From Flavonifractor porci (GTDB taxonomy: Bacteria; Bacillota; Clostridia; Oscillospirales; Oscillospiraceae): 64,000 bases of DNA. This document shows, piece after piece, positions 40,682-63,792 of the stretch (position 1 is its first letter; every line of letters begins with the position of its first letter). The notes beneath the pieces are model-generated. The model saw only the letters and a program-made list of their open reading frames with translations, was not told the origin of the DNA and did not search any database. The translations under genes were made by a program, and so were the position numbers. The DNA lies in contig NZ_JBBHLB010000005.1 in assembly GCF_037572415.1 (NCBI RefSeq), forward strand, positions 150,050 through 214,049, given 5' to 3'.

Positions 40682-40789
40682 CCCAACTCCCACTGTTTTG
40701 TTTTCACAGCACAGGATCTCTGCTGCAAAACGTTGATCTGCTCTCTTCGCAGGCAATGTCCCCAGTGCAGCATACAAAATAAACAAAAC

Positions 40790-40846
40790 GCAGCTACCGC
40801 AAACAGGCAAGCGCCTGATTTCGCGGTAGCTGCTGTTTTTGCCCGA
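40790..40846 (+). terminator. intrinsic terminator GCAGCTACCGC…GCGGTAGCTGC followed by TGTTTTTG
   Basis: 11-bp stem plus a T run downstream of the vWA gene. Confidence 0.6.
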
Positions 40847-41044
40847 TAAAGGCGGCTGTAACGGCATGAGATAGGAGCTTCTCAAACGTGTGCGGCGGAC
40901 ACGTAAGGTACAGCGTACAAAGCAAATTTTCACGATACCCTATGCAGCCAGGATATTGTATTGACCGCAGGGCGCTATTAAGATTATTGTGTTGGATTAG
41001 CTTCCTAATTGCAGCAAAAACGGGCGGGTTTCCCCGCCCTTCAA

Positions 41045-41263
41045 TTAGCTTTCATCGTCTTTGATATATTTCATAATATCGCCCACTTCGCAGTCCAGAA
41101 TACGACAAAACACCTCTATGGTATGGGTACTGACACTTTCGTTGCGCTTCAACCTTGTAATCTGTGCCGGGCTGATATTGTATTTCTTTATGAGGGCATA
41201 TTGGGAAATCCCTTTTTCCCGCATGACATTCCATAAGTTGTCGTAAGAAATCATAACATTCAA
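41045..41263 (-). CDS. XRE-family HTH transcriptional regulator (72 aa)
   Basis: HTH (GISQYALIKKYNISPAQITRLKRNES). AT-rich, with a terminator hairpin GGGCGGG-GAAAC-CCCGCCC downstream. Confidence 0.6.
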   Translation of the reverse strand: MNVMISYDNLWNVMREKGISQYALIKKYNISPAQITRLKRNESVSTHTIEVFCRILDCEVGDIMKYIKDDES

Positions 41264-41353
41264 GCCTCGCTCTCTACTTGAATGTTAACCGAAAACGATG
41301 TACAATTAGATTAACCAATATCGGTTAATATATTTATGTAGGAGGAGACGGAA

Positions 41354-42352: not shown

Positions 42353-42415
42353 GCACAAAAAGAGAGGGCGGTACACCATCAGTGCCGTCCTCTCTCATTT
42401 TGTATTCCATTGTTA

Positions 42416-42826
42416 TCAAGCGCTCTCCTGCTCCTTCTTCTCTTCCTGCTTCTTCTGGAAGCCAGCAAGATCAATCACCTTGGAAGCATTGGAACTAAAA
42501 TCGGGCTGCTCCTTGTACTTTGGGAACTGGGTCTCAAACCAATTCCGCACAAACTTGTAGGGGATGGGCTGCTCCAGGGAGCAGGTCTTGACCACCTCAG
42601 ACTGGGCCAACAGCTCACCAGCATTCTGAAACACGCCCATATACTTCTCCATGTTTGCGCAAGTCAGGTTCTTGTAGGTGCGTTTGCTGGCATTTTTCTT
42701 GATGGTCTTGGTCGCTATCTGAGTACTGGGGAAGTCCTGGCGGTAAGCTCTCCACTCTCTGTATTCAGGAGGGCCGAAGATACGGGTCTGCTTCTTGAAA
42801 GCCTTGCCGTGGTGGGCAATCCCCAT
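42416..42826 (-). CDS. hypothetical ORF whose first codons derive from the displaced rubrerythrin 3'-end copy; it may be real or spurious
   Basis: Starts MGIAHHGKAF…, corresponding to rubrerythrin …[15 protein letters not shown]. Lys/Glu-rich C-terminus. Low-GC region. Confidence 0.2.
   Translation of the reverse strand: MGIAHHGKAFKKQTRIFGPPEYREWRAYRQDFPSTQIATKTIKKNASKRTYKNLTCANMEKYMGVFQNAGELLAQSEVVKTCSLEQPIPYKFVRNWFETQFPKYKEQPDFSSNASKVIDLAGFQKKQEEKKEQESA
42770..42818 (-). repeat. displaced, degenerated copy of the rubrerythrin 3' end (stop lost, one codon deleted)
   Basis: GAAAGCCTTGCCGTGGTGGGC…TTCAAGAAGCAGACCCGTATCTTCGGCCCT aligns with rbr 42985-43040, GAAAGCCTTGCCGTGGCGGGC…TTCGAGGGCCTGCTGAAGCGTTACTTCGGCTAA. 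Confidence 0.6.
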
Positions 42827-42984
42827 GGGACAAATCCCATGGGGACCCCAATGATTTCATCTGCTCGGGCGGAGTGAATCCGCCCGGCTTCGAGGTTTCA
42901 GCTTCGCCAAAACCCTCGGTGACGAGGCCCGCCACGGCAAAAAAGATCCCGGTCCGTTGGACCGGGATCTTTTAGGTATTCAGA
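42819..42984 (-). repeat. copy D of the structured element family, inserted exactly at the rubrerythrin stop codon, with its own strong terminator
   Basis: CCCATGGG-ACAAAT-CCCATGGGG palindrome, then ACCCCAATGATTTCAT, core hairpin CGGGCGGA-GTGAA-TCCGCCCG, and the terminator AGATCCCGGTCC-GTTG-GACCGGGATCT with A/T flanks at 42944-42970. Confidence 0.7.
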
Positions 42985-43527
42985 TTAGCCGAAGTAACGC
43001 TTCAGCAGGCCCTCGAAAGCCTTGCCGTGGCGGGCCTCGTCGCGAGCCATCTCGTGGACGGTGTCGTGGATGGCGTCCAGGTTGTGCTCCTTGGCCAGCT
43101 TGGCCAGCTCGAACTTGCCGGCGGTAGCGCCGTTCTCGGCGTCCACACGCATCTCCAGGTTCTTCTTGGTGGAATCGGTCAGAACCTCACCCAGCAGCTC
43201 GGCAAACTTGGCGGCGTGCTCGGCCTCCTCCAGAGCGGCCTTCTCCCAGTACAGGCCGATCTCGGGGTAGCCCTCACGATGAGCCACACGGCTCATGGCC
43301 AGATACATACCGACCTCGGAGCACTCGCCCTCAAAGTTCATGCGCAGGCCCTGGATGATCTCCTCGGGAGCGCCCTTGGCAACACCGACAACGTGCTCAG
43401 CAGCCCAGGTACGATCGCCACCCTGGAGCACGAACTTCTCCTTGGGAGCCTTACAGATGGGGCAGAAATCAGGGGCGGAATCCCCCTCGTGAACATAACC
43501 GCAAACAGAGCAGACCCACTTTTTCAT
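42985..43527 (-). CDS. rbr: reverse rubrerythrin (N-terminal rubredoxin-like domain plus C-terminal ferritin-like diiron domain)
   Basis: [28 protein letters not shown] (CxxC…CxxC rubredoxin fold) followed by diiron ExxH motifs ([23 protein letters not shown]). Confidence 0.85.
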
Positions 43528-43590
43528 GTGATTTTCCTCCTAATTTAATGATTTATTTTATTCAATTTCGGGTTAGCTGGAAGTGCTAAT

Positions 43591-43611
43591 CAGTAATGAT
43601 TATCATTTCTG
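43591..43611. promoter_or_regulatory. Fur-family (PerR/Fur) box AATGATTATCATT, a perfect 6-1-6 palindrome, in the rubrerythrin promoter
   Basis: Matches the core of the classic Fur box GATAATGATAATCATTATC. Located ~70 nt upstream of the rbr start. Confidence 0.55.
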
Positions 43612-43683
43612 ATATTAAGATAGCACAACTTAACTCTGCCGTCAAGTGTTTTTTTCAAATTCCGAAAACTTTTTTATTTCACC

Positions 43684-43832
43684 TTACTTTTCATGTTTGC
43701 GGCGGTAACGGCGGTGTCCCAGCACCAGAATAAAAACGCCTGCCGCTGCCAGGATTCCGCCCAATACAATCTGGGCGATGATGGGACCATACATGATAGA
43801 TATCACACGATCTATACTACTACTATAAAAGC
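43684..43832 (-). CDS. small membrane peptide (49 aa), not in the ORF track because it is under 60 aa
   Basis: GGGGGATAAGGA RBS then ATG. Encodes MDLGFYSSSIDRVISIMYGPIIAQIVLGGILAAAGVFILVLGHRRYRRKHEK, one TM helix and a basic tail, immediately downstream of the XRE-TM regulator. Confidence 0.35.
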
Positions 43833-43854
43833 CGAGATCCATTTCCTTATCCCC

Positions 43855-44226
43855 CTATGGCAGACATTCGGGCAACTTCATAAACTCCCACAGGCCATTT
43901 ATGGTCAAAAGCTGCAGCAGCCCCCGTATCAACAGATAGCTCCCCACTGCCAGCGGTAAAATCCCCAGCAGATACCATCTGGGTTCTCTCCTCTCAGGTG
44001 CCGCCTCTGTGGGCAGGCCCGGATCAGGCCTCTCCCCTAACAGCAGCTGGTCTGTTGTGATCCCAAATAGTTTGGCCAAGGCCACGATCTTATCCAATTC
44101 CGGCTGGGCAGCGTCACCCTCCCACTTGCTCACCGCCTGGCGGGACACTCCCAGCAGTTCGGCCAACCCTTCCTGAGACAGGCCCGCGCGTTTGCGGTAA
44201 TTCAGAATCCGCTCTCCCAAGGTCAT
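43855..44226 (-). CDS. XRE-family HTH regulator with a C-terminal transmembrane segment
   Basis: HTH (AGLSQEGLAELLGVSRQAVSKWE) plus a C-terminal hydrophobic helix WYLLGILPLAVGSYLLIRGLL. Confidence 0.6.
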   Translation of the reverse strand: MTLGERILNYRKRAGLSQEGLAELLGVSRQAVSKWEGDAAQPELDKIVALAKLFGITTDQLLLGERPDPGLPTEAAPERREPRWYLLGILPLAVGSYLLIRGLLQLLTINGLWEFMKLPECLP

Positions 44227-44417
44227 CCTTGCTCGCCATCCTTTCTCCCGGCGTCACCGGACAGTTCCAGACTATCAAACGATCCGGTTTCATACCATAA
44301 AGTTTGGCTTGAACTTCCACAACCGCTGGTTGTCAAAAGGGTTTTCAAGCAAAATCATCATAACATAGCCTGCCCAGCGTATTCAAGCATCCCTTGGTAA
44401 AGATCCGGCATAACAGA

Positions 44418-44452
44418 AAACGGGCGCGCTGGGATATACAGCGCGCCCGTTT
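44418..44452. terminator. terminator hairpin AAAACGGGCGCGCTG-loop-CAGCGCGCCCGTTTT
   Basis: Perfect 15-bp stem with flanking A and T runs downstream of the 44475..45068 gene. Confidence 0.65.
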
Positions 44453-44474
44453 TGAGCGGTTTTTATCAGGCAAT

Positions 44475-45068
44475 TTATGTGTCCGCAAGTGCCTGGGCGG
44501 CAGCCTTGATTACAGCCACGCAGGCATCGATACCGATACGGCTGTTGACGCACAGATCATACTCCCGGCTCTGTCCCCAACGGCCGGTGGCAAAATAATT
44601 ATAATAGGAGGCTCTTGCCTTGTCCTGGCGGATAACATAGCTCTCCAGATTGTTCTCCTGTACACCGTACTCCTCCCGAGCCCGGCGGATCCGCTGATCC
44701 AGAGGTGCATTGACAAATACCTTCAGGCAGCGGGGGTGATCCCGAAGGATATAGTCGGCGCAGCGGCCCACAATGACACAGGATTCCCTGTCAGCGGCCT
44801 CCTTGATAACTTTAGCCTGCGCGATAAACACCTGATCGGGAACCGATGGCGTCTGTACGCTGGTATAGAGATCATAGAGAAAACTATTGGTGGGGCGCTG
44901 ATGCTCGGCATTGCGGATAAAGTGCTCGGAGAAGCCTGTCTTTTTTGCCACATCGGAGATCAGCTGTTTGTCGTAAAATGTGATGCCCATCTCTTCGGAC
45001 AACTGCTTGGCAATAAGCCGTCCGCCGGAACCGTACTCACGACCGATGGTAATGACGATGTGTTTCAT
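44475..45068 (-). CDS. cytidylate kinase-like family protein (P-loop NTPase, function unknown)
   Basis: MKHIVITIGREYGSGGRLIAKQL… P-loop. Paralogous N-terminus to the protein at 54692..55177. Confidence 0.6.
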   Translation of the reverse strand: MKHIVITIGREYGSGGRLIAKQLSEEMGITFYDKQLISDVAKKTGFSEHFIRNAEHQRPTNSFLYDLYTSVQTPSVPDQVFIAQAKVIKEAADRESCVIVGRCADYILRDHPRCLKVFVNAPLDQRIRRAREEYGVQENNLESYVIRQDKARASYYNYFATGRWGQSREYDLCVNSRIGIDACVAVIKAAAQALADT

Positions 45069-45190
45069 AAGAACACCTCCTATCCTAATTTAAGTATAAT
45101 GCTTTTTTCTCCTTCCGTCAAAGAGTTTTCATTTTCATATCTTATATTTATTATCCTATGTTAATATGCAAAATTTATTACGGATTTCGA

Positions 45191-45218
45191 TTGACTTTCC
45201 GCCAAACCTGAGTATAAT
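45191..45218 (+). promoter_or_regulatory. sigma-70-type promoter TTGACT-16 nt-TATAAT
   Basis: Consensus hexamers ~90 nt upstream of the 45306 start. Confidence 0.4.
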
Positions 45219-45305
45219 AGTTGCCATCTGGCCCATATGTCCAAAGGGTCTTTTCCCTCCGCAAGGAAACTGAAAAAGAGAGCACAAAAAGAAAGGAGTA
45301 TCCAT

Positions 45306-45509
45306 ATGTTTATTCTGGGTATCATTCTGATCATCGCCGGTATTGGCTGTGCCGGTTACGGTTTTATGCAGAACAACAGCTTGGAGGCCCAGTTCACCAG
45401 CATCATGAGCAGCGGTACCGCTAACCCCGGCACCATGTTTATCGTCATTGGCGTGATCCTGCTGGTAGTCGGTATCATCCTCTGTGTGGTCGGCAAAAAG
45501 AAGAATTAA
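45306..45509 (+). CDS. small membrane protein (67 aa, two TM helices)
   Basis: AAAGGAG RBS then MFILGIILIIAGIGCAGYGF…IVIGVILLVVGIILCVVGKKKN. Confidence 0.45.
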   Translation: MFILGIILIIAGIGCAGYGFMQNNSLEAQFTSIMSSGTANPGTMFIVIGVILLVVGIILCVVGKKKN

Positions 45510-47120
<1,611 letters not shown>

Positions 47121-52020: not shown

Positions 52021-52707
52021 TTATGGAACTACAAAGCGGTAGCCCAGTCCACGGACCGTCTGGATATATTGGGGCTTGGATGGGTTTTCTTCGATCTTTG
52101 CGCGGATTCGGTTGATATAAACCATAATGGCATTTTCGTCAATGATAGCCGACCCCCATACCAGGTCGTAGATCATATCCTTGGAAAAAATATGATTCAC
52201 ATTGTCCATAAACAGCTTGATCATGGCGTTTTCCTTGGAGGAGAGAACCACCTCTTCTCCGTTTTTATAGAAACGGAGCGTGCTGGTATTATACTGAAAG
52301 GGGCCGGCGGTAATGATCTGATCCGCTCCGGGCAGATTCCCCCGGCTGCGGCGGATCAGCGCTTTTACCTTTGCTGCAAGGGTAACCGGATTGAGGGGTT
52401 TTGTGATATAGTCGTCTGCACCAATATCCAGACCATAGAGGGTATCATAATCCTCTTTGCGTCCGCTGACGATCATAATGGGGATCTTGCCTCCGTTGCG
52501 CCGGATATGCTGGATCACCTGAAACCCATCCATACCGGACAGATTGATATCCAGCAAAAGCAGGTCGTACTTTTTCTTTGCCAGCATCTCAAGGCACTGT
52601 TCCCCGGAATCGGCGGTATCCGCCTGAATGCCGTTGCTGCTGATCACTTTATACAGCATGGTAAGAACAGCTCTGTCGTCATCAACAATGAGTACAAGAT
52701 CCGCCAA
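52021..52707 (-). CDS. OmpR/PhoB-family response regulator
   Basis: REC domain (DLVLIVDDD…LLLDINLSGMDG…) plus a C-terminal winged-helix trans_reg_C (…TVRGLGYRFVVP). The start is set at a TTG with an AAGGGGGAT RBS; the tracked ORF extends far upstream with no homology. Confidence 0.75.
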   Translation of the reverse strand: MADLVLIVDDDRAVLTMLYKVISSNGIQADTADSGEQCLEMLAKKKYDLLLLDINLSGMDGFQVIQHIRRNGGKIPIMIVSGRKEDYDTLYGLDIGADDYITKPLNPVTLAAKVKALIRRSRGNLPGADQIITAGPFQYNTSTLRFYKNGEEVVLSSKENAMIKLFMDNVNHIFSKDMIYDLVWGSAIIDENAIMVYINRIRAKIEENPSKPQYIQTVRGLGYRFVVP

Positions 52708-52770: not shown

Positions 52771-54552
52771 ATGTTTGGCAAGGGGAGAATTTACTTGAAA
52801 CCGCCCATCAAACTGGAGCGCAAATTCCTGATGATTATATTGCTGGCTTTCGCCCTCATATTTGCCGGAATTTTTATGGTATTTCGTGTTTTCCACCAAT
52901 ACGAAAATATGATGATCCAAAACGAAGACCGGCAGCTTTTGGGGTTGTCCCGCTCGGTGGACCGCAGTATCACCAGCTATATTCAGCAATTTTCCCGGGA
53001 TCTGAAGCACACGCTGCAGCGCGACGGACTGGAAGAGGCGGAGACTGCTTATCGGAACACTGGAAGCATGGAAGAAATTGCTTTGCAAATCGAGGCAACC
53101 ATCCTTTCAGAGCATCCCTTGACATACGACATCCTGTGTATCGACAACGGAACCATTCTTTACTCCTCCCGCGGAAAAACAGACTATGTGTTTCCGCCAA
53201 ATGCCGGTCTGGAGGGAGACGTCGATATCCGCCCCTGCGTCGATGCGTCAGGAACGATCTACCTCTCCTTCCAGAAAAGCATCCAAAGCGATCTGCGATA
53301 CGCCGTACTGATCGAGCTTACGGAATTTTATCAGGCTGTGGCGGGAAATCTGATCGTCGGTACCCAAGACCGTATTCTGCTTCTGGACGCAGGGGGACAC
53401 ACACTCTTATATCAAACGGAAGAAGGCCCCGCGGCCTCACTTGTCCAGAATGATCGGGAGGGCGTGATCGATCAGGACGAGTTAAATGCGCTTCTGAACT
53501 GCCAAAGCCGCGGGGAAGATGTATCTCTTTTCTACCAGGCTCAGACCAGCAAAGATGCAAAAGCTTATACGGCGCGCATGGCAGCCATTCCGGCCGCCGG
53601 AAACAATGGTGTGTTTGCAGTGGGGGCCTCCCTCAATTATGAAACCATCAAACGTCCCATCCATATGTCCGCCATACGGCTTGCCGCCTACAGCAGCATG
53701 ATCATACTCGGAATTTTACTGTTGGCTGGCTCCATCCTGCTGGTAGCCCGGCGCAATGCGCGGACCCAGCAGGAAGTGATCATGCTGCGGGAACAAAATC
53801 TCGCCCTGGAGGCGGTCACAAAAAAGTCCCAGGCTCTGGCCCACCATCAGCGGCTGGAGATCATTGGCACCCTGACCTCCAGCATTGCCCATGAATTCAA
53901 CAACCTTCTGACCCCCATTATGGGTTACTCCATTCTGGTTCTGGAAAAACTGCCGCCTGACGCCGAAGAGACCTATGACAATGTACTGGAAATTTACGAG
54001 GCTTCCAGAAAGGCAAAGACCATTATCTCCCGCCTCTCAGACCTCTCCCGCAAAAATACCCCCCTCACTTTTCAGTATGTCTCGCCGGATGATCTGGTGC
54101 TGCGTGTTCTGGAGATCGCCGCGCCGGCGAAACCGCCCAAGGTACAGGTCAGCAGCAAGCTTCAGTGCCGGCACCTCTGGGTGCACGGCAATGAGATCCA
54201 GCTGTCCCAAATGCTGCTCAACCTGATTTTGAACGCTTACCAGGCCATGGAGACAGACGGCGGGACCCTTACCGCCACAACTGAACAGGAGGATGACTGG
54301 ATCTGCTTCCATGTGGCCGATACAGGCCCGGGAATCGCCCCCTCGCTGCTGGAAACGATCTTTGAGCCCTTCTTTACCACCAAGGAACGAGGAAAAGGAA
54401 CCGGGCTGGGTCTGGCCATTGTGCAGCAGGTCGTAGAGGAACACCACGGTACTGTCTGCGTCCACAGCGAATTGGGACAGGGAACCACATTCACCGTTCG
54501 TCTGCCCCTCCCCGCCCAGGAGGATGGACACAGCCATAACAGCATATCATAA
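52771..54552 (+). CDS. sensor histidine kinase with a periplasmic sensor domain
   Basis: Two TM helices flank a ~250-aa extracytoplasmic region. HisKA H-box SSIAHEFNNLLTPIMGY, then HATPase_c N, G1 and G2 boxes (NLILNAYQAM, DTGPGI, GTGLGLAIV). The start is uncertain (52771 or 52831). Confidence 0.75.
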   Translation: MFGKGRIYLKPPIKLERKFLMIILLAFALIFAGIFMVFRVFHQYENMMIQNEDRQLLGLSRSVDRSITSYIQQFSRDLKHTLQRDGLEEAETAYRNTGSMEEIALQIEATILSEHPLTYDILCIDNGTILYSSRGKTDYVFPPNAGLEGDVDIRPCVDASGTIYLSFQKSIQSDLRYAVLIELTEFYQAVAGNLIVGTQDRILLLDAGGHTLLYQTEEGPAASLVQNDREGVIDQDELNALLNCQSRGEDVSLFYQAQTSKDAKAYTARMAAIPAAGNNGVFAVGASLNYETIKRPIHMSAIRLAAYSSMIILGILLLAGSILLVARRNARTQQEVIMLREQNLALEAVTKKSQALAHHQRLEIIGTLTSSIAHEFNNLLTPIMGYSILVLEKLPPDAEETYDNVLEIYEASRKAKTIISRLSDLSRKNTPLTFQYVSPDDLVLRVLEIAAPAKPPKVQVSSKLQCRHLWVHGNEIQLSQMLLNLILNAYQAMETDGGTLTATTEQEDDWICFHVADTGPGIAPSLLETIFEPFFTTKERGKGTGLGLAIVQQVVEEHHGTVCVHSELGQGTTFTVRLPLPAQEDGHSHNSIS

Positions 54553-54691: not shown

Positions 54692-55177
54692 ATGATTATA
54701 ACGATCGCACGAAAGTACGGCAGCGGCGGCCGGGAGATCGGCCAGCGGCTGGCCAAACATCTGGATATTCCCTACTACAACGTGGACGCCCTGCCCCACA
54801 CACAAACCGGGGACTGGCGGGAAGAGATCCTTCTGCTGGCCGATACCGGTCCATGCGTCATGGTGGGTTTTTGCGCCGACCATGCACTGGCTGGGCGGGA
54901 AGGCCTCATGCGTATCTTTATCCACTGTGACATGGAGCATCGCCTCCAGCGGATCATGGCGGAGCATCACCTCTCCAGAGAACAGGCCCAGCGCGAGGCC
55001 CTCTATCAGGACCGGGAGCGGTCCCGGCTGTACGGATTCTACACCGGAGAAAAATGGGCCAATCTGGACCGGTACGATCTGACGGTCAACAGCAGCCTTT
55101 TGGGGACAGCCGGTACCGTGGAATTGCTGGGCCAGTTTGTGGCGCTGAATGTCATGCGTAAACGCAGAGGCCAGTGA
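54692..55177 (+). CDS. cytidylate kinase-like family protein (paralog of 44475..45068)
   Basis: MIITIARKYGSGGREIGQRLAKHL… P-loop with the same architecture as the first copy. Confidence 0.6.
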   Translation: MIITIARKYGSGGREIGQRLAKHLDIPYYNVDALPHTQTGDWREEILLLADTGPCVMVGFCADHALAGREGLMRIFIHCDMEHRLQRIMAEHHLSREQAQREALYQDRERSRLYGFYTGEKWANLDRYDLTVNSSLLGTAGTVELLGQFVALNVMRKRRGQ

Positions 55178-55326: not shown

Positions 55327-55656
55327 ATGCTGGAGAATTTGATTGAAACCGCACTGCCCACCATCATCGCAATTCTGGAGATCATGGGCATCTTCGTAGT
55401 GGTCGTCTCGGCCACCGGCGCGTTTATCCGTTACCTGAAAGGGCTTATCACCCACTCCGGGTCAGACGTCAAGTTTGCCCTGGCCAACGGGCTGGCCATC
55501 AGTCTGGAATTCAAAATGGCCGCCGAGATCTTGAAAACCGTCCTGGTGCATGAGCTCAATGAGCTGATGGTATTGGGGGCGGTCATCCTTTTGCGTGCGC
55601 TGTTATCATTTCTCATTCACTTTGAAATGAAGCAGATACATCACACCGAATCATAA
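55327..55656 (+). CDS. small integral membrane protein (DUF1622-like)
   Basis: 109 aa, three predicted TM helices (IIAILEIMGIFVVVVSATGAF…). Confidence 0.5.
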   Translation: MLENLIETALPTIIAILEIMGIFVVVVSATGAFIRYLKGLITHSGSDVKFALANGLAISLEFKMAAEILKTVLVHELNELMVLGAVILLRALLSFLIHFEMKQIHHTES

Positions 55657-55673
55657 TTCAGGAGGTACCACAA

Positions 55674-56747
55674 ATGAAGAAACTGCTTGCACTGATCCTG
55701 TCCGGTACGCTGACCATGGGCGCACTGTCCGCCTGCGGCAGCACGGCGGTGGTGGCTGTCCCCCAGCCTGAGGAATCTGCGCCCGCCGTCACCGAACCGG
55801 TTCCGGAACACACGCAAGGTACATCGGATGCCGCGGTCAAAACCGGCCTCTATCTGGGCACCAGCTTGTCCAGCAGCAAAAATGCCGCCGACGGCGAGGA
55901 TGGATACAGCCAGGCCAACGTCGAACTGGTGGCGGTCACTGTGACCGACGAAGGGGTCATCGACTCCTGCGTGATCGACTCCATCCAGGCAAAGGCCTCC
56001 TTTGACGCCACCGGAACCCTGACTGCCGACCTGACCGCCCAGGTGCCCTCCAAAAACGAGCTGGGCAGCAATTACGGTATGGGCCAGGTCAGTTCCATCG
56101 GCAAGGAGTGGAACGAACAGGTTCAGGCTCTGGCCGATTACGTAGAGGGCAAGACGGTGGAGGAGATCAAGGGCATCGCCGTGACCGAGGAGGGCAAGGC
56201 CTCCGACGCGGATCTGGCCGCCTCCGTTACCGTCTCCATCGCCGGCTATCTGGACGCCATTGAGCAGGCGGTTTCCAACGCCACTCATCTTGGCGCCATG
56301 CAGGGAGATCGTCTGGTTCTGACCACCTCCACCAACATTGCCAACAGCAAGAGCGCCACCGCTGAGGAGCCCGGCCAGGTCCAGACCTCCGCCACTGTGG
56401 CCGCCGTTACCCTGAGCGGCGACGTGATCACCAGCTGCTACATCGACGCTGTCCAGGCCAATGTGGACTTTGATGCTGCCGGCGTGATCACCACCGACCT
56501 GACCGCGGCGCCGCCCACCAAAAATGAGCTGGGCGACAACTACGGCATGGGCCAGATCAGCCCCATCGGCAAGGAATGGAATGAGCAGGTGGCTGCCTTC
56601 TGCGCGTATGTGACCGGCAAGACCCTGAACCAGGTGGCGGGGATCGCCGTGACCGAAAAGGGCGCTGCCGCCGACGCAGACCTGGCCGCCTCGGTCACCA
56701 TCGCCATCGGGGAGTTCCAGGCCCTGATTGCAAAAGCCGCCGCCTGA
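55674..56747 (+). CDS. extracytoplasmic lipoprotein with two tandem FMN-binding domains (PplA-like flavinylation substrate)
   Basis: Lipobox LSACG. Internal duplication …KNELGSNYGMGQVSSIGKEWNEQV…DADLAASVTVSIAGY… and …KNELGDNYGMGQISPIGKEWNEQV…DADLAASVTIAIGEF…. Each repeat has an FMN_bind-type (S/T)GAT-like flavinylation context. Confidence 0.65.
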   Translation: MKKLLALILSGTLTMGALSACGSTAVVAVPQPEESAPAVTEPVPEHTQGTSDAAVKTGLYLGTSLSSSKNAADGEDGYSQANVELVAVTVTDEGVIDSCVIDSIQAKASFDATGTLTADLTAQVPSKNELGSNYGMGQVSSIGKEWNEQVQALADYVEGKTVEEIKGIAVTEEGKASDADLAASVTVSIAGYLDAIEQAVSNATHLGAMQGDRLVLTTSTNIANSKSATAEEPGQVQTSATVAAVTLSGDVITSCYIDAVQANVDFDAAGVITTDLTAAPPTKNELGDNYGMGQISPIGKEWNEQVAAFCAYVTGKTLNQVAGIAVTEKGAAADADLAASVTIAIGEFQALIAKAAA

Positions 56748-56801
56748 GTTTTTCTTCAGGCAGCAGCTTGATACCCCTGTCATTTGGAAAGTAGAGGTTA
56801 T

Positions 56802-57836
56802 ATGAAGCGAACGGCCACTTTGATCCTCCTGCTGGTTCTGCTCTGCGGGTGCGCAGCAGCCCCCGCAAAGTCTGACGACACTGGACTGAACCGCTATGAG
56901 GCCACATTTCTGACCCTGTTTGATACCGTCACCACCATCGTGGGATATGCCGAAACCGAGGAGGCCTTTACCGACACGGCCCAGGCCTTCCATGATGAAC
57001 TGCTGGAATATCATCAGCTCTATGACATTTACAACGAGTACGAGGGAATCAACAACATCAAGACCATCAACGATCACGGCTGGGAACACCCCATCAAGGT
57101 GGATCAGCGGATCATTGACCTGCTGTTGTTCAGCAAGGAGCTGTATACCCAGACAGAAGGCAGGGTCAACATCGCCATGGGCAGCGTACTCCGCCTGTGG
57201 CATGATGCCCGGGAAACCGGCATAGCCGACCCCAGCCGGGCGGCACTGCCGGACCAGGCTGCCCTGGAACAGGCCGCAGCCCACACGGATCTCGACAGCA
57301 TCCAGATCGACGTGGAAAAACGCACCGTTTTCCTGTCTGACCCGGAGGTCAAACTGGATGTTGGCGCCATTGCCAAAGGCTATGCGGTGGAGCAGGTCTG
57401 CCGGAACACCCCCTCTGGATTGCTCATCAGCGTGGGCGGAAATGTCTGTCCCACCGGCCCAAAGCCGGAAAGCGGCCATCCGTGGGTGGTGGGCATTCAG
57501 GCCCCGGAAGATCCGGATCAATATCTCCATACCATCTATGTGGAAGATGTCTCTGTGGTCACCAGCGGAGATTATCAGCGGTATTTTACCGTGGACGGCG
57601 TTCCATACCACCATATCATAGATCCTGACACCAACTATCCTGCCGGTCACTGGCGCTCGGTCACCATTCTGTGTCGGGATTCCGGTGTGGCGGACGCCCT
57701 CTCCACCGCCCTTTTTACCCTGCCCCAGAAGGCGGGACAGGCCCTGCTGGACGCCTTCCAGGCAGAGGCCATGTGGGTGCGTCAGGACGGAACCATCCTG
57801 TACAGCCCCGGATTTCAGGCGTATATCCGCGTATAG
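56802..57836 (+). CDS. apbE: FAD:protein FMN transferase (ApbE family) lipoprotein
   Basis: Signal peptide with lipobox LLCGCAA. ApbE family motifs (…DLGAIAKGYAV…, VTSGDYQRYF…HHIIDP). Confidence 0.8.
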   Translation: MKRTATLILLLVLLCGCAAAPAKSDDTGLNRYEATFLTLFDTVTTIVGYAETEEAFTDTAQAFHDELLEYHQLYDIYNEYEGINNIKTINDHGWEHPIKVDQRIIDLLLFSKELYTQTEGRVNIAMGSVLRLWHDARETGIADPSRAALPDQAALEQAAAHTDLDSIQIDVEKRTVFLSDPEVKLDVGAIAKGYAVEQVCRNTPSGLLISVGGNVCPTGPKPESGHPWVVGIQAPEDPDQYLHTIYVEDVSVVTSGDYQRYFTVDGVPYHHIIDPDTNYPAGHWRSVTILCRDSGVADALSTALFTLPQKAGQALLDAFQAEAMWVRQDGTILYSPGFQAYIRV

Positions 57837-57867
57837 CCAAAGCGCTCATATCATCGAGGTGGAAAGA

Positions 57868-59175
57868 ATGAGAAAATTGTTTTGGGGTGGTATCCACCCA
57901 GAGGGACATAAAGCTCTCTCCCGGGGTGCATCCCCCATTCCCGCACCCCTGCCGGCGCAGGTCGTCCTGCCCATGGTCCAGCATATCGGCGCAGCCTGCA
58001 CCCCTGTGGTCAAAGTCGGCGATCAGGTCAAAATGGGACAAAAGATCGGCGACGGGGAAGGGATCTGCGCCCCCATCCATGCCTCTGTCTCAGGCAAAGT
58101 GGTGGCTGTGGAGCCCCGTCCCCACCCCGGCGGCAGCGAAGCGCTGTCCGTGGTGATCGAAAATGACTACACAGATACACCGGACGACACCTTAAAGCCC
58201 CATCTGGCCCACCATGACCTCTCCGGAGAAGAGATCCTCCGCATCATCCGGGATGCAGGCATCGTGGGCATGGGCGGCGCCGCATTCCCCACAGACGTGA
58301 AGGCCTTCTCCGCACTGGGCCAGGTGGACTATGTGATCATCAATGCCTGTGAGTGCGAGCCGTATATTACGGCGGACGATACCCTCATCTGTACTTATCC
58401 CGAGCAGGTGATCCGGGGAACGGAGACCCTGATTCATACCCTCACACCCAAGCATACGGTGATCGCCATTGAGGACAACAAGCAGGAGGCCATCCGCATT
58501 CTGAGGGACGCCCTGCCCAAGGACTCATCCATCGAATTGCGGGTACTGCCCACCCGCTACCCCCAGGGCGCCGAGAAGCAGCTGATCCAGGCCGTAACCA
58601 GCCGGCAGGTCCCTCCGGGCAAGCTGCCCGCCGCCGTGGGCTGCGCCGTGTTCAACGCAGCCACCGCTGCCGCCGTCTATCAGGCGGTATACGAGGGCAA
58701 GCCGGTCACCCGCCGCATTGTGACGGTCACCGGCGACGGAGCTGTGGCGCCCAAGAATATGATTTTCCGCATTGGTGCCACCTTCGGTCAGGCCATTGAC
58801 GCTGCCGGCGGCATGGCGGAGGACACCCAAAAAGTGCTGTCCGGCGGTCCTATGATGGGCCTTGCCCAAAAGGACCTGGCCGTGCCGGTTCTGAAGGGCA
58901 CCAACGCCATTCTGTGCCTGAAAGCCACAGTTCCCCAGACCAAAACCCAGACCTGCATCCGCTGCGCCAAGTGCGTGTCCGTTTGCCCCATGCACCTGCA
59001 GCCGCTGTACCTGTACCGCTTTGAACAGGCCGGGAACTGGAAGGAACTTGAGAAGCTGCATTTGACGGACTGTATCGAGTGCGGAAGCTGCAGCTACACC
59101 TGCCCGGCACAGCTCCCGCTGGTGGAGCGGTTCCGTGCGGGCAAACAGCAGCTGAAGGAGGCAAAGAAAGCATGA
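57868..59175 (+). CDS. rnfC: RnfC-type subunit (NADH-binding, two [4Fe-4S] ferredoxin motifs)
   Basis: MRKLFWGGIHPEGHK… N-terminus, the RnfC core, and CIRCAKCVSVCP / CIECGSCSYTCP cluster motifs. Confidence 0.8.
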   Translation: MRKLFWGGIHPEGHKALSRGASPIPAPLPAQVVLPMVQHIGAACTPVVKVGDQVKMGQKIGDGEGICAPIHASVSGKVVAVEPRPHPGGSEALSVVIENDYTDTPDDTLKPHLAHHDLSGEEILRIIRDAGIVGMGGAAFPTDVKAFSALGQVDYVIINACECEPYITADDTLICTYPEQVIRGTETLIHTLTPKHTVIAIEDNKQEAIRILRDALPKDSSIELRVLPTRYPQGAEKQLIQAVTSRQVPPGKLPAAVGCAVFNAATAAAVYQAVYEGKPVTRRIVTVTGDGAVAPKNMIFRIGATFGQAIDAAGGMAEDTQKVLSGGPMMGLAQKDLAVPVLKGTNAILCLKATVPQTKTQTCIRCAKCVSVCPMHLQPLYLYRFEQAGNWKELEKLHLTDCIECGSCSYTCPAQLPLVERFRAGKQQLKEAKKA

Positions 59176-60146
59176 AACTGCTTGTAACATCCTCTCCCCA
59201 CATTCACAGCGGGTCCCGTACCAGCCGTCTGATGGGCGCGGTGCTGATCGCGCTGATTCCCGCCCTTGTGGCCGGTGTGTGGTTCTTTGGTATCAGAGCC
59301 CTGGTCCTTACCGCGGTCACTGTGCTGGCCTGCCTGCTCTCCGAGTGGCTCTACCGCATGGTCACCCGGCAGAGCAACACCCTGCCGGACCTGTCCGCAG
59401 CGGTGACCGGCGTTCTGCTGGCTATGACCCTCCCCGCCTCCGCCCCCTACTGGCTGGCGGCTCTGGGCGGTGTCTTTGCCATTGTGGTGGTCAAGGGGCT
59501 GATCGGCGGTCTGGGACAGAACATCTTTAACCCTGCCCTGGCTGCCCGGGCTTTCCTGGTCCTGTTCTGGCCCAGCTGGATGGTCCGCTATGCGGCGCCT
59601 GGTACCGCCCTGGACCCGCTGTCGGTCTCAGTGGACATCGTATCCTCCGCCACTCCTCTGCACCATATGCAGATGCCCGCGCTGCCTACGGAGTCCCTGC
59701 TGGATGTATTTCTGGGAAATATGGGCGGCTGTATCGGCGAGGTGTCCGCCCTGGCCCTGCTGCTGGGCGGCGGATACCTGCTGCTCCGTAAGGTGATCTC
59801 CTGGCGCATTCCGGCGGCCTACCTGGGCGCTGTGGCACTGCTTACCCTGATCTTCTCCAAAGGCCAGGATCCCGTCCTGTGGATGCTCTACAGCCTGATG
59901 GGCGGCGGCGTGCTGCTGGGCGCCTTCTTTATGGCCACGGACTATGCCACCTCCCCTGTTACCCCCAAGGGCCAGCTGATCTACGGCGTGGGATGCGGCG
60001 TACTCACCGTCTGCTTCCGCTGCTACGGACTTTTCCCGGAAGGGGTCACCTATGCCATCCTGCTGATGAACGCCTGTGCCTGGAGCCTGGACCGGCTCAC
60101 ACCCCCCAAGCGCTTTGGCACTGTGAAAGGAGGCGGCGTACAGTGA
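59172..60146 (+). CDS. rnfD: RnfD/NqrB-type membrane subunit
   Basis: Polytopic protein that aligns with the RnfD/NqrB family (…GIRALVLTAVTVLACLLSEWLY…GGLGQNIFNPALAARAFL…). Its ATG overlaps the rnfC stop (ATGA). Confidence 0.8.
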   Translation: MKLLVTSSPHIHSGSRTSRLMGAVLIALIPALVAGVWFFGIRALVLTAVTVLACLLSEWLYRMVTRQSNTLPDLSAAVTGVLLAMTLPASAPYWLAALGGVFAIVVVKGLIGGLGQNIFNPALAARAFLVLFWPSWMVRYAAPGTALDPLSVSVDIVSSATPLHHMQMPALPTESLLDVFLGNMGGCIGEVSALALLLGGGYLLLRKVISWRIPAAYLGAVALLTLIFSKGQDPVLWMLYSLMGGGVLLGAFFMATDYATSPVTPKGQLIYGVGCGVLTVCFRCYGLFPEGVTYAILLMNACAWSLDRLTPPKRFGTVKGGGVQ

Positions 60147-60682
60147 ACATAAAACAGTTGATCCAGCCTGTGGCTGCCCTTCTCATCGCCGCCCTGGTTT
60201 TGTTCCTGGGCACCACCGTGCTCTCCCCCATTGCTCAGGAAAACAAGGAGCAGGAGCTGCAGTCCATCCTCTCCACCCTTCTGCCCGGCGCAGAGTCCTT
60301 TGTCCAGGAAGAGTACACCGGCGAGGACGAGGCTATCTCCGCGGTCTACAAGGCGGATAACGGCTATGTGATCGAAACGGTCACCGCCGGATATGCCGGC
60401 GATATCACCATGCTGGTAGGCGTCAATCTGGACGGCACCATTGCCGGTCTGGTGGTGCGGGATATGCAGGAGACCTACGGGCTTGGCATGGAGGCCCTCT
60501 CCGACGTATCCTTCCTGTCTCAGTTCCTCTGGAATGGCACCACCTTTACCGTAGGCGAAAATGTGGACGCCCTCACCGGCGCCACCGTTACCTCCAAGGG
60601 GGTGGCCAAGGCTGTTACCTCAGCCAGTGCCTTTGTAACCGGCGCGGATATTGGCTCCAGCGCCACCGAATGGGGAGGTTGA
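60143..60682 (+). CDS. rnfG: RnfG/NqrC-type FMN-binding subunit
   Basis: N-terminal TM anchor then an FMN_bind domain with the flavinylation motif TGATVTSKGV. GTG start with a GGAGG RBS. Confidence 0.75.
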   Translation: MNIKQLIQPVAALLIAALVLFLGTTVLSPIAQENKEQELQSILSTLLPGAESFVQEEYTGEDEAISAVYKADNGYVIETVTAGYAGDITMLVGVNLDGTIAGLVVRDMQETYGLGMEALSDVSFLSQFLWNGTTFTVGENVDALTGATVTSKGVAKAVTSASAFVTGADIGSSATEWGG

Positions 60683-60686
60683 TGTG

Positions 60687-61124
60687 ATGAAAAATACCTA
60701 TCGTCTGAATACCTTCCTGGCTTTGGTGGCAGGCCTGGTATTTCTGGGCTACCTGGCAGTGCAGGCCTATTCTCCCGCCGCCATTCTTCCTCAGCTGGAT
60801 CTGATGCTGGTCAGCGGGATCTCCCTGGTGGCCCTGATCCTGGAGTATTATTCCGGGAAGCCGGTGGAGCGTCGCAGCTGGCCTGTGACAGCGCTGCTCA
60901 GCGCACTGACGTTCGTTCTGCTGCCTCTGGCGGCGGGTCTGATGTCCGGTCAGGAGCTGCTCCGGTTTGCCCTGGTAAGCTGGGCTGCGTTTATGGTGCT
61001 GACCTTCCTGTTTACCGCCATCTGTCAGCGTCTGGCCTCCGGACCAGCAAGCAAGATCGCTCCCCTGCTCTCTGCCGGAGTCCTGTTCCTGGCGGTTCAG
61101 GGCTGCAGCAGCCTGTTCCTGTGA
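60687..61124 (+). CDS. hypothetical four-TM membrane protein, the last gene of the RnfCDG operon (not RnfA/E-like)
   Basis: GGGGAGGT RBS. 145 aa, four hydrophobic helices, no His/Cys ligand pattern. A strong terminator follows at 61151-61195. Confidence 0.45.
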   Translation: MKNTYRLNTFLALVAGLVFLGYLAVQAYSPAAILPQLDLMLVSGISLVALILEYYSGKPVERRSWPVTALLSALTFVLLPLAAGLMSGQELLRFALVSWAAFMVLTFLFTAICQRLASGPASKIAPLLSAGVLFLAVQGCSSLFL

Positions 61125-61150
61125 CCCCGCAAGCTTCCTTGCCTTCACGT

Positions 61151-61195
61151 TTAAAAAGAGAAAGCCTTGAAACTGTAGTTTCAAGGCTTTCTCTT
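61151..61195 (+). terminator. intrinsic terminator AAAGAGAAAGCCTTGAAAC-TGTAG-TTTCAAGGCTTTCTCTTT
   Basis: 19-bp perfect stem followed by a T run. It ends the FMN-lipoprotein/apbE/rnfCDG operon. Confidence 0.8.
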
Positions 61196-61201
61196 TCCGT
61201 T

Positions 61202-61615
61202 TTAATAAAACTTCTGCTCCGCTTGTCCGCCATTCCCTTTCTCTGCGGCCATTTGGTTGATTTCCTGCAGCGTATACTCCTTGCCAACACATTCCGTCAT
61301 CCCGCTGCTGCCGGCATCCTGCACCTTTATGTAAATGACTCCGTTTTTCTTGCCAGAAAGCTTTTTCAGCAGTCCGGTCGTCGTAAGCATCGTCTTGTTA
61401 AAGCCGGTTACATCAGGAACAGGGGAGCTGAGGATGCAGCCACACTGTTCACATTTGAACAGGTATAGATTCCCTTCCAACTTCATCTGCATTTTCTGAT
61501 CAATGCTCCAGTGGGGAACCGACGTTCCACACAGGGGACAAGTCTGAACATTGCGGTCAATAAATCCCTGAGGAACACTTCCCGCAAAGCCTTCCATCCT
61601 CTTAAACGCCATCAT
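61202..61615 (-). CDS. hypothetical zinc-ribbon protein (137 aa)
   Basis: CPLCGT…CEQCGC motif pair. No other recognisable domain. Confidence 0.4.
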   Translation of the reverse strand: MMAFKRMEGFAGSVPQGFIDRNVQTCPLCGTSVPHWSIDQKMQMKLEGNLYLFKCEQCGCILSSPVPDVTGFNKTMLTTTGLLKKLSGKKNGVIYIKVQDAGSSGMTECVGKEYTLQEINQMAAEKGNGGQAEQKFY

Positions 61616-61629
61616 GAGTCCCCCTTATC

Positions 61630-61989
61630 TTATAGTCCAACCATCATGGAAATGATAAAATACAGCAAGGCTCCCCCTGCAATCGTAAAAATGGTAATAG
61701 CCAGATAGTTGAGCCCGAACTCCTTCGCCCTCGCTTTGTTGGCTTTAACTGCCACAGTGGATGCTTTTACGACAGGGAATCCATTTTCGATCACGACATC
61801 GGCGGTAAAGTCATTTCTGATCATAGCCCCATAACTATTCTGGGAGTCTACAAAACCGGCTATATGGTATCCTCTTGTCTCATCTCCCACGATGGATATC
61901 ATATCAACTGGGAACTGCGCCGATGCCGGGCTTTTGAGTTGGGCACAAATTGCCGGTTTTACAACCTTCATAATTTCTTCGTTGGTCAC
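61630..61989 (-). CDS. hypothetical membrane-anchored protein (C-terminal TM helix)
   Basis: GGGAGGA RBS then GTG. C-terminal helix LNYLAITIFTIAGGALLYFIISMMVGL. Confidence 0.4.
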   Translation of the reverse strand: MTNEEIMKVVKPAICAQLKSPASAQFPVDMISIVGDETRGYHIAGFVDSQNSYGAMIRNDFTADVVIENGFPVVKASTVAVKANKARAKEFGLNYLAITIFTIAGGALLYFIISMMVGL

Positions 61990-62308
61990 TTCGATTCCTC
62001 CCATGTTGAACGGATTCCGACAGATGCTTTAAGCCTTCCCGACCGCTCAGGCAAGTATGCCGAAACCTCCTTTGCTGCTCCAAATCCATACAGCTTTTAC
62101 GGATCCATTTCTATTTTATGCCGTTTTTAATAGAAAACAATATTCCAGCTGCATAGTTTTTGCATCTTATGGCATCTATCCCATTTTTGTGTGCCAGCCA
62201 TGGCTTATCCACTGGGAGGGCCGACCGCAGCGAGGAGCACAATCTCCGCACTTATCGTGATTGACAGCGTAATCTGCAACCACATACATACACGGGCAAG
62301 CCTTCTGC

Positions 62309-62683
62309 TCAGATATGGATTTTTCTCAGCAGGTTTTCCACCTCATTTGCTTTCAGAACCTTGCCCATCGTGACCACCCTCTCATTGACCACCAGAGCGG
62401 GAACGCTCATGACTCCATAGCCGACAATCTTGGCCATGTCGGTCACATACTCCACTTCTACATCAAGGCCCATACCCCTCACAGCTTCTTTTGTATTTTC
62501 CAGCAGGGTATGGCAGGAGGCACAGCCTGCACCCAATACCTTGATGGAGCGCACGTCATTGGCAGTGCTGTCCCCTCCTTTCACAACTTTGGAAACATCC
62601 ACCTCGGCGGTGGGGCAGCCGCACTGACAAGCACAGGCAGGCACTTTTTCTTCTTTCTTCTTGCTAAAACCAAACAGACTCAT
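62309..62683 (-). CDS. thioredoxin-family 'redox-active disulfide protein 2'-like protein with a Cys-rich N-terminal extension
   Basis: Thioredoxin-like segment with a CxxC (IKVLGAGCASCHTLLENTKEA…VPALVVNERVV). N-terminal ACACQCGC metal-binding-like motif. GGAGGT RBS at the internal MSLFGF start. Typical partner of the adjacent permease. Confidence 0.65.
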   Translation of the reverse strand: MSLFGFSKKKEEKVPACACQCGCPTAEVDVSKVVKGGDSTANDVRSIKVLGAGCASCHTLLENTKEAVRGMGLDVEVEYVTDMAKIVGYGVMSVPALVVNERVVTMGKVLKANEVENLLRKIHI

Positions 62684-62778
62684 TGCAAATACCTCCAAAT
62701 CAAATAAATGTGAAGCAGACTGGTTCACATCCAATCCGCAACATCCAAATCCACATGGCGCTGGATCCTTCTTGTTTC

Positions 62779-63792
62779 CTAAACCAGCAGGAACTGGATC
62801 GCATTGAAAAAATAGCCCACGATGATGATGCCCGCGGTGCAAATGGCGATAAAGGTAGCCAGCAGTTTAGGCTTTACCGCCTTTTTCAGCATGATCATGG
62901 ACGGAATACTCAAAGTGGTAACAGCCATCATAAACGACAGGATCGTACCCAGGCCGGCACCCTTGAACAGCAGGCTCTCCGCCACAGGGATCGTCCCAAA
63001 GATATCAGCATACATAGGAACGCCCACCAGAGTGGCCAGGATAACGGCAACAGGATTGTCGCTGCCCAGAACCATCTCCACCCACTCCTGGGGAACCACA
63101 TTGTGGATAAAGGCGCCGATACCTACACCGATAAAGATATAAGGGGCAACCTTCTTGATGGTTCCCAGCAGCTGTTCTTTGGCAAACCAGACCCGATCGC
63201 GGCAGGTCAACTCCTGACCATCTGCGTCCATGTGCGGGGCGTTTTTGATAAAATCCTCCACATAACGCTCCATCCTGAATCTTTCCAACAAGGTGCCGCC
63301 AACAACAGCGATCACCAGACCGAGGACCACATAGATGACCGCAACTTTGGTGCCGAAAATGCTCATCAAAAGCACCAGAGAACCCAGATCAACCATGGGG
63401 GAAGAAATCAGGAAGGAAAAGGTCACGCCCACCGGCAGCCCCGCGCTGGTAAAACCCATAAAGATGGGAATAGAGGAGCAGGAGCAAAAAGGCGTCACTG
63501 TACCCAGCAGGGCCGCAGCTGAGTTTGCGCCGATACCGTGAAACCGCCCCAGAATCTTCTTGGTGCGCTCCGGCGGAAAATAACTCTGAATGTAAGAAAT
63601 GCCAAAGATCAGTACCGAGAGCAAAATAAAGATTTTAATGGTGTCATAGATAAAAAATTGCAGCCCCCCGCCGATGACGCTGTCAAGGGATAGACCTATG
63701 GCAGTCAGAGCATCACCGATCAGGGCATTCAGCCATTTCATTCCAAGGATCTGATCCTGGAAGAACAGCCAAATTGTATGAATCACTTCCAT
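62779..63792 (-). CDS. permease (DUF318/ArsP-like family membrane protein)
   Basis: 337 aa, polytopic, with conserved CxC…C motifs (VTPFCSCSSIPIFMGF) typical of this permease family. In an operon with the thioredoxin-like gene. Confidence 0.65.
   Translation of the reverse strand: MEVIHTIWLFFQDQILGMKWLNALIGDALTAIGLSLDSVIGGGLQFFIYDTIKIFILLSVLIFGISYIQSYFPPERTKKILGRFHGIGANSAAALLGTVTPFCSCSSIPIFMGFTSAGLPVGVTFSFLISSPMVDLGSLVLLMSIFGTKVAVIYVVLGLVIAVVGGTLLERFRMERYVEDFIKNAPHMDADGQELTCRDRVWFAKEQLLGTIKKVAPYIFIGVGIGAFIHNVVPQEWVEMVLGSDNPVAVILATLVGVPMYADIFGTIPVAESLLFKGAGLGTILSFMMAVTTLSIPSMIMLKKAVKPKLLATFIAICTAGIIIVGYFFNAIQFLLV

Follow-up and report, generated by a model that had tools for sequence, protein, structure and literature searches.

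The 64,000-nucleotide stretch of Flavonifractor porci DNA analysed here (contig NZ_JBBHLB010000005.1; called the window below) carries a tightly spaced plus-strand operon at positions 55327-61196 that encodes a DUF1622 membrane protein, a lipoprotein (LIPO), an ApbE-type flavin transferase, RnfC, RnfD, RnfG and a 145-aa membrane protein (TM145). The operon is read here, with somewhat better than even confidence, as a truncated Rnf-derived NADH:extracytoplasmic-flavin oxidoreductase. It is conserved in Flavonifractor and many related gut Clostridia, where it looks like an undescribed system for quinone-free electron export. A preliminary description of the locus had proposed a conduit that leads from NADH through RnfC to flavin mononucleotide (FMN) groups outside the membrane, with repurposed Rnf parts in place of Ndh2. 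That proposal gained support from about 60 genomes in which RnfA, RnfE and RnfB are missing, from LIPO and ApbE found in an Ndh2 context, and from intermediates whose RnfE and RnfA have lost cysteines.

All six open reading frames (ORFs) from LIPO to TM145 were confirmed on the plus strand, at the positions previously given for them, by ORF and family checks. The LIPO gene (55674-56747; 357 aa, lipobox LSAC) is followed by that of the FAD (flavin adenine dinucleotide):protein FMN transferase (56802-57836; PF02424, E 7e-64), for which 56802 is the likelier start and whose lipoprotein signal (LLCGC) agrees with its earlier assignment as an ApbE/FmnB-type lipoprotein. The genes of RnfC (57868-59175), RnfD (59172-60146), RnfG (60143-60682) and TM145 (60687-61124) come next, and the strong terminator reported at the operon end was recovered as an intrinsic terminator at 61155-61196 (+), which has a 19-bp stem and a T tract (-28.9 kcal/mol, z = -6.2) and is common to the convergent downstream gene. 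The operon had been drawn from position 55674; a single terminated operon stands, but the DUF1622 gene (55327-55656, +; PF07784, E 7e-17) and the two-component genes upstream had been overlooked. Since the gap between the DUF1622 and LIPO genes is 17 nt and the pair is syntenic in relatives, the operon probably starts at 55327.

RnfC, RnfD and RnfG were identified as in the preliminary description, with one omission. RnfC, the cytoplasmic NADH/FMN module (Complex1_51K, RnfC_N and SLBB domains), scored 511 bits against TIGR01945 (cut-off 246) and has two [4Fe-4S] motifs of the form C-x2-C-x2-C-x3-CP (58954-58989 and 59071-59106). RnfD, a membrane flavoprotein of 324 aa, scored 316 bits against TIGR01946 (cut-off 207) and carries the flavinylation motif DIVSSAT at residues 155-161 (59634-59654); PF03116 (E 3e-113) is its sole domain, without a fused NqrF-type NAD-binding domain (PF00175). 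RnfG, a membrane-anchored extracytoplasmic FMN_bind protein (E 1e-16), has the motif DALTGAT in its domain (60566-60586) and scored 62 bits, under the TIGR01947 cut-off of 102. Overlooked had been a second, canonical flavinylation motif in the RnfG C-terminal tail, D169-I-G-S-S-A-T175 (60647-60667, +). The C-terminus reads ...FVTGAD-x-x-S-[S/G]-A-T-x-W-G-G in 63/63 distinct family sequences, and the tail motif lies beyond the alignment with the solved chains 7zc6_G, 9eri_G and 8ahx_G, which align only to residue 164. Because the motif is universal in the family and short terminal tags of such sequence are efficiently flavinylated by ApbE (review PMC12052999), a second, mobile FMN is likely to sit on the RnfG tail, where it could bridge to LIPO. 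The RnfG of one further locus (L075, about 14373-14950) has a third flavinylation motif in an insert, DAFSGATGSS, besides the domain and tail motifs.

The absence of RnfA, RnfE and RnfB from the locus, as first described, was upheld at every scale covered. No Rnf-Nqr-type (PF02508) or RnfB gene was found across the 64-kb window by a crude gene map and by tblastn with E. coli RsxA, RsxE and RsxB. The suspicion that rnfE, rnfA and rnfB might lie just past the window, or be split off by an assembly break, was followed on the matching NCBI contig (metagenome-assembled genome (MAG) GCA_022785125.1), where about 6 kb 3' of the operon held none of the three and instead unrelated genes (Thioredoxin_3, ArsP, ArsR, LrgAB and a radical SAM gene). 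In 58 related genomes with the gene set, the same tblastn queries gave no RnfA, RnfE or RnfB over the 10 kb on either side, and a few weak RsxB matches in other loci were generic 4Fe-4S domains only; this negative result is meaningful, since the RsxA query did recover the RnfA of one locus that has the gene (L054, 39% identity). The downstream flanks vary by lineage, one having SpoU and his genes, another a recombinase and the window ArsP; this makes the operon end real and, together with the terminator, rules out an assembly break as the cause of the missing genes. No canonical rnf operon was traced in genomes with this operon: the rnf operons met in the literature and among RnfA homologues were all unrelated ones.

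With each species represented by a single genome, at least 545 genomes had a LIPO relative; the best 80 of these were fetched with 10-kb flanks. The order LIPO-ApbE-RnfC-RnfD-RnfG-TM145 was found in 58 of the 80; one genome had RnfE and RnfA in place of TM145, five (probably six) had an Ndh2-type context, two were odd, and in 13 the contig ended before a decision was possible. Carriers of the gene set are mostly Oscillospiraceae, and the operon is present in Flavonifractor plautii ATCC 29863 (L018) and in an Intestinimonas MAG (L017); among named relatives, Flavonifractor sp. AGMB03687 is closest (87% identity in LIPO). Incomplete loci were also seen. In a Merdimonas MAG (L013, 12219-12374) the RnfC match ends after about 50 residues and the remaining operon is missing though the contig runs on, which could reflect operon decay or misassembly, and a Pseudoflavonifractor MAG (L033, 10001-10960) has the regulator, kinase and LIPO without ApbE or Rnf genes downstream, the next ORFs being on the opposite strand.

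In five loci (L074 (Sporobacter), L082, L084 (Defluviitaleaceae), L087 and L088) LIPO and ApbE are preceded by genes for a type-II NADH dehydrogenase of 663 aa that ends in a membrane domain, a polyprenyl synthase and UbiA, in three of the five also by PF07456 (EetB) with or without NusG_II (EetA), and Rnf genes are absent. This gene set we take to be the extracellular electron transfer (EET) locus of Listeria, LIPO taking the position of PplA. EetB corresponds to PF07456, the S-component of an FAD exporter (PMC9973259). Since LIPO and ApbE hold the place of PplA and FmnB in five to six Ndh2 loci of Clostridia, the idea of EET from Rnf parts instead of Ndh2 is directly supported.

Three intermediate loci (L054, L090 and L091) have the order (EetA-EetB)-DUF1622-LIPO-ApbE-RnfC-D-G-RnfE-RnfA, without RnfB and without TM145; DUF1622 was found in L054 and L090, with no match in L091. 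In Acetobacterium woodii the ligands of the membrane [2Fe-2S] cluster are C25 and C113 of RnfA and C25 and C108 of RnfE (PMC11889175). The RnfA of the intermediates is highly divergent (at most 50% identity to anything else) and reads GLDLF against the canonical GLCPF and ANSA, VNTA or LNTA against TNCA, and their RnfE has lost the second cysteine in 3/3 and the first in 2/3, so that three or all four cluster cysteines are replaced. LIPO and ApbE thus occur in three contexts, Ndh2-type, RnfCDGEA and RnfCDG with TM145; the electron-input module is exchanged around a constant output of LIPO and ApbE, RnfCDG with TM145 substituting for the quinone module. As judged by sequence, the ferredoxin side has decayed stepwise within the Rnf-based versions.

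LIPO had been described as a PplA-like lipoprotein with two FMN-binding domains, and this architecture is seen by fold and position, but not by family hidden Markov model or canonical motif. No Pfam or NCBIfam family matched the window protein, for which FMN_bind (PF04205) gave nothing at E<=0.01, and three LIPO relatives gave no PF04205 match at E<=1; a Foldseek search with LIPO gave no match. Two further comparisons were discarded, a phmmer search of LIPO against the PDB (signal-peptide noise only) and an hhalign of its domain 1 with family RnfG (P = 0.13, not significant). The AlphaFold model (pLDDT 82.7, pTM 0.79) has the lipobox, a disordered Pro/Glu/Ala-rich tether of about 30 residues and two similar domains of about 150 residues each, packed as a pseudo-dimer. 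LIPO was matched to 2kzx_A, with RnfG and NqrC chains further down the list, and a profile built from both domains also matched one PDB sequence, 2kzx_A (E 0.016), on whose D-A-I-S-G-A-T the LIPO motif D-L-A-A-S-V-T aligns exactly. On this model and profile, LIPO is assigned an FMN-binding fold, and its size, strand insertions and paired domains match the pseudo-dimer that Huang et al. call 'FMN-bind2' (PMC11334425).

The variant motif occurs once in each domain (D180-L-A-A-S-V-T186, 56211-56231, and D336-L-A-A-S-V-T342, 56679-56699, both +), and no family member departs from its D or T in either domain. Domain 1 of other members has the nearly canonical DLASSAT, DLASTAT or DLAASAT. The motifs of the family's RnfD include DGVASAT and DGVTAAT, from which the cognate ApbE evidently tolerates Ala or Ser at positions -3 and -2, and in published mutagenesis a G-to-A or A-to-V change still gave roughly half-maximal flavinylation (review PMC12052999). 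T186 and T342 are probably the FMN attachment sites. More than 4000 LIPO homologues were found in metagenomes, none with a Pfam domain. Longer relatives of 476-624 aa (P0003, P0004, P0013, P0014, P0022 and P0024) are probably three- or four-domain versions, and one longer relative has a SPRY-like Pfam match.

TM145 belongs to a tight protein family confined to operons of this type; it occupies the position where rnfE-rnfA normally sit and is present in all RnfCDG loci that have no RnfE and RnfA. It had been called an unrelated four-helix protein; the absence of any family match stands, but the AF2 model has five helices (pLDDT 87), and a weak match to RnfA was found over the last two. A HMMER scan of 1.84 billion cluster representatives returned 376 relatives, and the 150 matches listed were members of the TM145 family and fragments, mostly of about 145 aa. 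Residues P35, R63, P80 and R115 are invariant; there is no conserved Cys pair, and the GxCP and TNC motifs are lacking. Whether the protein might be a diverged RnfE or RnfA, as the preliminary description had allowed, was examined by a Pfam scan of 33 members, which gave noise (Rnf-Nqr in 2/33, best E 0.05), and by hmmsearch against RnfA/E sequences, which was not significant; on these and the HMMER result, a functional RnfA/E was rejected. Because the cysteine-bearing helices are missing, TM145 cannot rebuild the [2Fe-2S] cluster. What was found by hhalign is a weak match of residues 89-144 to TM5-loop-TM6 of RnfA, reproduced with three RnfA profiles (probability 40-78%, P 2e-5 to 3e-4), in which R115 falls on the invariant RER motif; controls of TM145 with RnfE, RnfD and DUF1622 gave nothing comparable (P 0.28 to 0.62). 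This match and the gene position suggest that TM145 may be a vestige of RnfA. Since solved RnfG docks chiefly on RnfA/E, a role as scaffold or dock is plausible by analogy.

In the solved Rnf complex, electrons pass in the order NADH - FMN(C) - C1/C2 - riboflavin(D) - FMN(D) - FMN(G) - [2Fe2S](A/E) - RnfB (PMC11889175), and RnfC, RnfD and RnfG make up its contiguous NADH-to-FMN(G) segment. In the proposed pathway, NADH would be oxidised by cytoplasmic RnfC via FMN and two [4Fe-4S] clusters, RnfD would carry the electrons across the membrane via riboflavin and a covalent FMN (T161), and, on the outer side, RnfG would accept them through the FMN of its domain (T148) and probably through a further FMN borne by the flexible tail (T175). 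These three steps follow the established Rnf order, and the remaining ones are suggested by motifs and context. The tethered LIPO would receive the electrons on two covalent FMNs (T186 and T342) and hand them on, either to extracellular acceptors, soluble or insoluble, or to surface reductases whose genes lie elsewhere. The five extracytoplasmic FMNs would be installed by the operon's own ApbE, and TM145, perhaps with DUF1622, would stand in for RnfA/RnfE as membrane scaffold or RnfG dock. With the membrane [2Fe-2S] cluster and RnfB missing, such a system would have no access to ferredoxin and probably would not pump ions. The Na+ coupling of Rnf lies at the A/E cluster, RnfD merely transferring electrons (Kumar et al., PMC11889175), so the truncated system should not pump. 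From the gene content, conservation, folds, motifs and alternative contexts that were observed, we infer a path from NADH to extracytoplasmic flavins that is probably unidirectional and non-pumping, and whose role in quinone-poor Oscillospiraceae would be that of Ndh2 and demethylmenaquinone in Listeria-type EET. A bolder version is offered tentatively: a so far unrecognised, quinone-independent EET machine of gut Oscillospiraceae, derived from Rnf by successive losses (first RnfB, then the cysteines of the [2Fe-2S] cluster, and finally RnfE/A, whose place was taken by TM145, a vestigial helix pair from RnfA), in which the FMN-bearing RnfG tail is a swinging arm to a doubly flavinylated, wall-spanning LIPO.

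Upstream of the operon lie an OmpR-type response regulator gene (52021-52707, -; Response_reg and Trans_reg_C on the matching NCBI contig) and, divergent from it, the gene of a membrane histidine kinase with an extracytoplasmic loop (52912-54552, +; HisKA and HATPase_c, by gene call and Pfam), followed by a gene of the Cytidylate_kin2 family (54692-55177, +; PF13189). Neighbours were counted in the 54 RnfCDG+TM145 loci with enough upstream sequence. A regulator was found within 5 kb upstream in 39 of these and a kinase in 38, and on this synteny the histidine kinase is likely to regulate the operon. DUF1622 is syntenic in 25/54, EetA-/EetB-like genes lie upstream in 16/54, and Cytidylate_kin2 is syntenic in 14/54, which form the Flavonifractor clade. 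Clustering of all neighbouring ORFs gave no recurrent reductase or transporter near the operon.

Several points weigh against the oxidoreductase reading. EetA/EetB (PF07009 / PF07456) are absent from the 64-kb window, which leaves the supply of FAD to ApbE unexplained here, and the locus itself encodes no acceptor for the proposed chain. The window LIPO lacks the canonical [S/T]GA[S/T] motif and its S-G-A core. In solved Rnf, RnfG docks mainly on RnfA/E (PMC11889175), so that an assembly of RnfC, RnfD, RnfG and TM145 is putative, and the C-terminus of TM145 is itself weakly RnfA-like. Finally, the genomes may carry rnfE, rnfA and rnfB, or else a complete second rnf operon, outside the regions covered. 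This last point leads to the view that rnfCDG serves a split but otherwise canonical ferredoxin:NAD+ oxidoreductase, its other subunits being encoded elsewhere and LIPO forming a side branch. The scores of RnfC and RnfD are those of standard family members, and Bui et al. assumed an expressed 'Rnf complex' in Intestinimonas, a genus that carries the operon, without a list of subunits (PMC4697335); that complex could be this operon or another. A split Rnf is nevertheless improbable in view of the adjacent RnfE and RnfA of the intermediates, which have neither the [2Fe-2S] cysteines nor RnfB beside them, the strict co-occurrence of TM145 with the loss of E and A, the divergence and extra tail motif of RnfG, and the empty +/-10 kb around 58 operons. 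That LIPO is non-redox (a binding protein, say, whose FMN-binding fold has degenerated), with ApbE serving RnfD and RnfG only, is very improbable given the invariant motif residues in both domains, the canonical-like D-L-A-S-S-A-T of other members and an ApbE gene that always adjoins LIPO, even in loci without Rnf genes.

Two other views keep the hardware and change its use. It could maintain the envelope, by reduction of O2, reactive oxygen species or oxidised envelope components, or by reductive iron uptake, under a two-component switch. The conserved sensor kinase and regulator beside the operon would suit this, as would the lack of a dedicated reductase nearby, and partial Nqr/Rnf-like and other flavinylated systems have been tied to iron assimilation (PMC8238504). 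Such a use is judged unlikely, however, since no iron transporter, Msr or peroxidase gene recurred among the clustered neighbouring ORFs, and the interchange with a complete Ndh2/demethylmenaquinone EET module points to an EET function. Inward flow, from reduced extracellular shuttles through the flavin chain to NAD+, is conceivable in that the Rnf cofactor chain is reversible in principle. By their established redox potentials, flavin or iron shuttles are less reducing than NADH, so inward flow would need an input of energy, and with the pumping module that would drive it missing, this direction is hardly to be expected. The reading of the operon as an outward NADH:extracytoplasmic-flavin oxidoreductase is preferred.

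Among known systems, the EET locus of Listeria monocytogenes (Ndh2, DmkA/DmkB, EetA/EetB, PplA and FmnB) likewise pairs a lipoprotein of two FMN-fold domains with an ApbE/FmnB lipoprotein; neither locus encodes an acceptor or has a reductase gene nearby, and EetA/EetB-like genes accompany a third of the operon's relatives. Here, however, RnfC, RnfD, RnfG and TM145 replace the NADH dehydrogenase and quinone steps, the crossing of the membrane would be by flavins only, and LIPO escapes the FMN_bind hidden Markov model and has D-L-A-A-S-V-T instead of [S/T]GA[S/T]. Ndh2 and the demethylmenaquinone genes DmkA/DmkB had no match in the 64-kb window. With canonical Rnf (RnfABCDGE; 7zc6, 8ahx and 9eri) the operon shares orthologous RnfC, RnfD and RnfG with their cofactor motifs kept, and the C-D-G gene order of Clostridial rnfCDGEAB; it differs in having no RnfA/RnfE, no [2Fe-2S] cluster and no RnfB, so that the ferredoxin side and the Na+/H+ coupling site are gone, and in the additional LIPO, TM145, DUF1622 and second RnfG flavinylation motif.

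The closest published parallels are the 'NQR/RNF-like' systems (PMC8238504, PMC11334425), which share the concept proposed here, half of an Nqr/Rnf circuit running one way from NAD(P)H to the outside with a flavinylated RnfG/NqrC-like subunit. Those are two-subunit systems in which an RnfD-like domain without a flavinylation site is fused to NqrF-type PF00175, as modelled by Huang et al. (PMC11334425), and Meheust et al. (PMC8238504) found such RnfD-NqrF fusions mostly in Actinobacteria and the candidate phyla radiation; in the present operon RnfC is a separate NADH module, the RnfD motif is kept, and the PplA-like lipoprotein and TM145 are added. Clusters in which RnfG bears more than one flavinylation site were proposed by Meheust et al. 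(2021) to branch to extracytosolic acceptors. In that study (PMC8238504) RNF clusters were defined by RnfB and multi-flavinylated RnfG occurred only within complete RNF clusters, whereas here a short C-terminal tag, not an added domain, provides the extra site, and no ferredoxin branch is left. In a 2019 context study, cad-apbE pairs were reported only where rnf genes are missing. Searches of the literature gave no account of an operon with rnfCDG alone joined to a PplA-like lipoprotein; a half-Nqr/Rnf conduit that runs one way is already known as an idea, and no earlier description seems to exist of this architecture, its intermediates, TM145 or the tail of RnfG.

Other features were recorded in passing. 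Convergent genes at window 61202-63792 (-) encode a 137-aa CxxC...CxxC (zinc-ribbon-like) protein and a 124-aa membrane-anchored protein, next to which (-) are a Thioredoxin_3-family protein and an ArsP_1 permease, with an ArsR-type regulator just past the window. GC content falls to 0.49-0.52 at 38000-46000 against about 0.60 elsewhere, so this region may have been acquired as an island; in it lie a rubredoxin/rubrerythrin-like ORF (42985-43527, -), an XRE-type helix-turn-helix gene (43855-44226, -) and a second Cytidylate_kin2 paralogue (44475-45068, -) with 24% identity to the operon's copy. A very large (2094-aa) secreted protein with a signal peptide is encoded at 32609-38893 (-). Another rnf type was seen in gut bacteria (L092-L105), with RnfC-D-(~180 aa, no Pfam)-E-A, proteins of 63-65 aa and 105-108 aa, ApbE and NusG_II; the 108-aa protein matches PF04060 (FeS) in L100-L105, with Hpre_diP_synt_I next in L100-L103, which suggests a split minimal RnfB.

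Flavin-based EET is established in Listeria and lactic acid bacteria, where it depends on Ndh2 and quinones, and many of the abundant gut Clostridia that produce butyrate are not known to make quinones. If the reading is correct, a flavin-only route made from Rnf parts would explain how such Clostridia unload NADH onto extracellular acceptors, and the ApbE-dependent systems would gain a sixth or seventh architecture. Full Rnf, the Cys-less E/A versions without B and the TM145 version would then form a natural series from a reversible ion pump to a one-way conduit. The operons are now automatically annotated as 'Rnf complex', an annotation that would lead astray any metabolic reconstruction in which ferredoxin re-oxidation and ion pumping are assumed. 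Flavonifractor plautii can be cultivated, so the hypothesis is directly testable.

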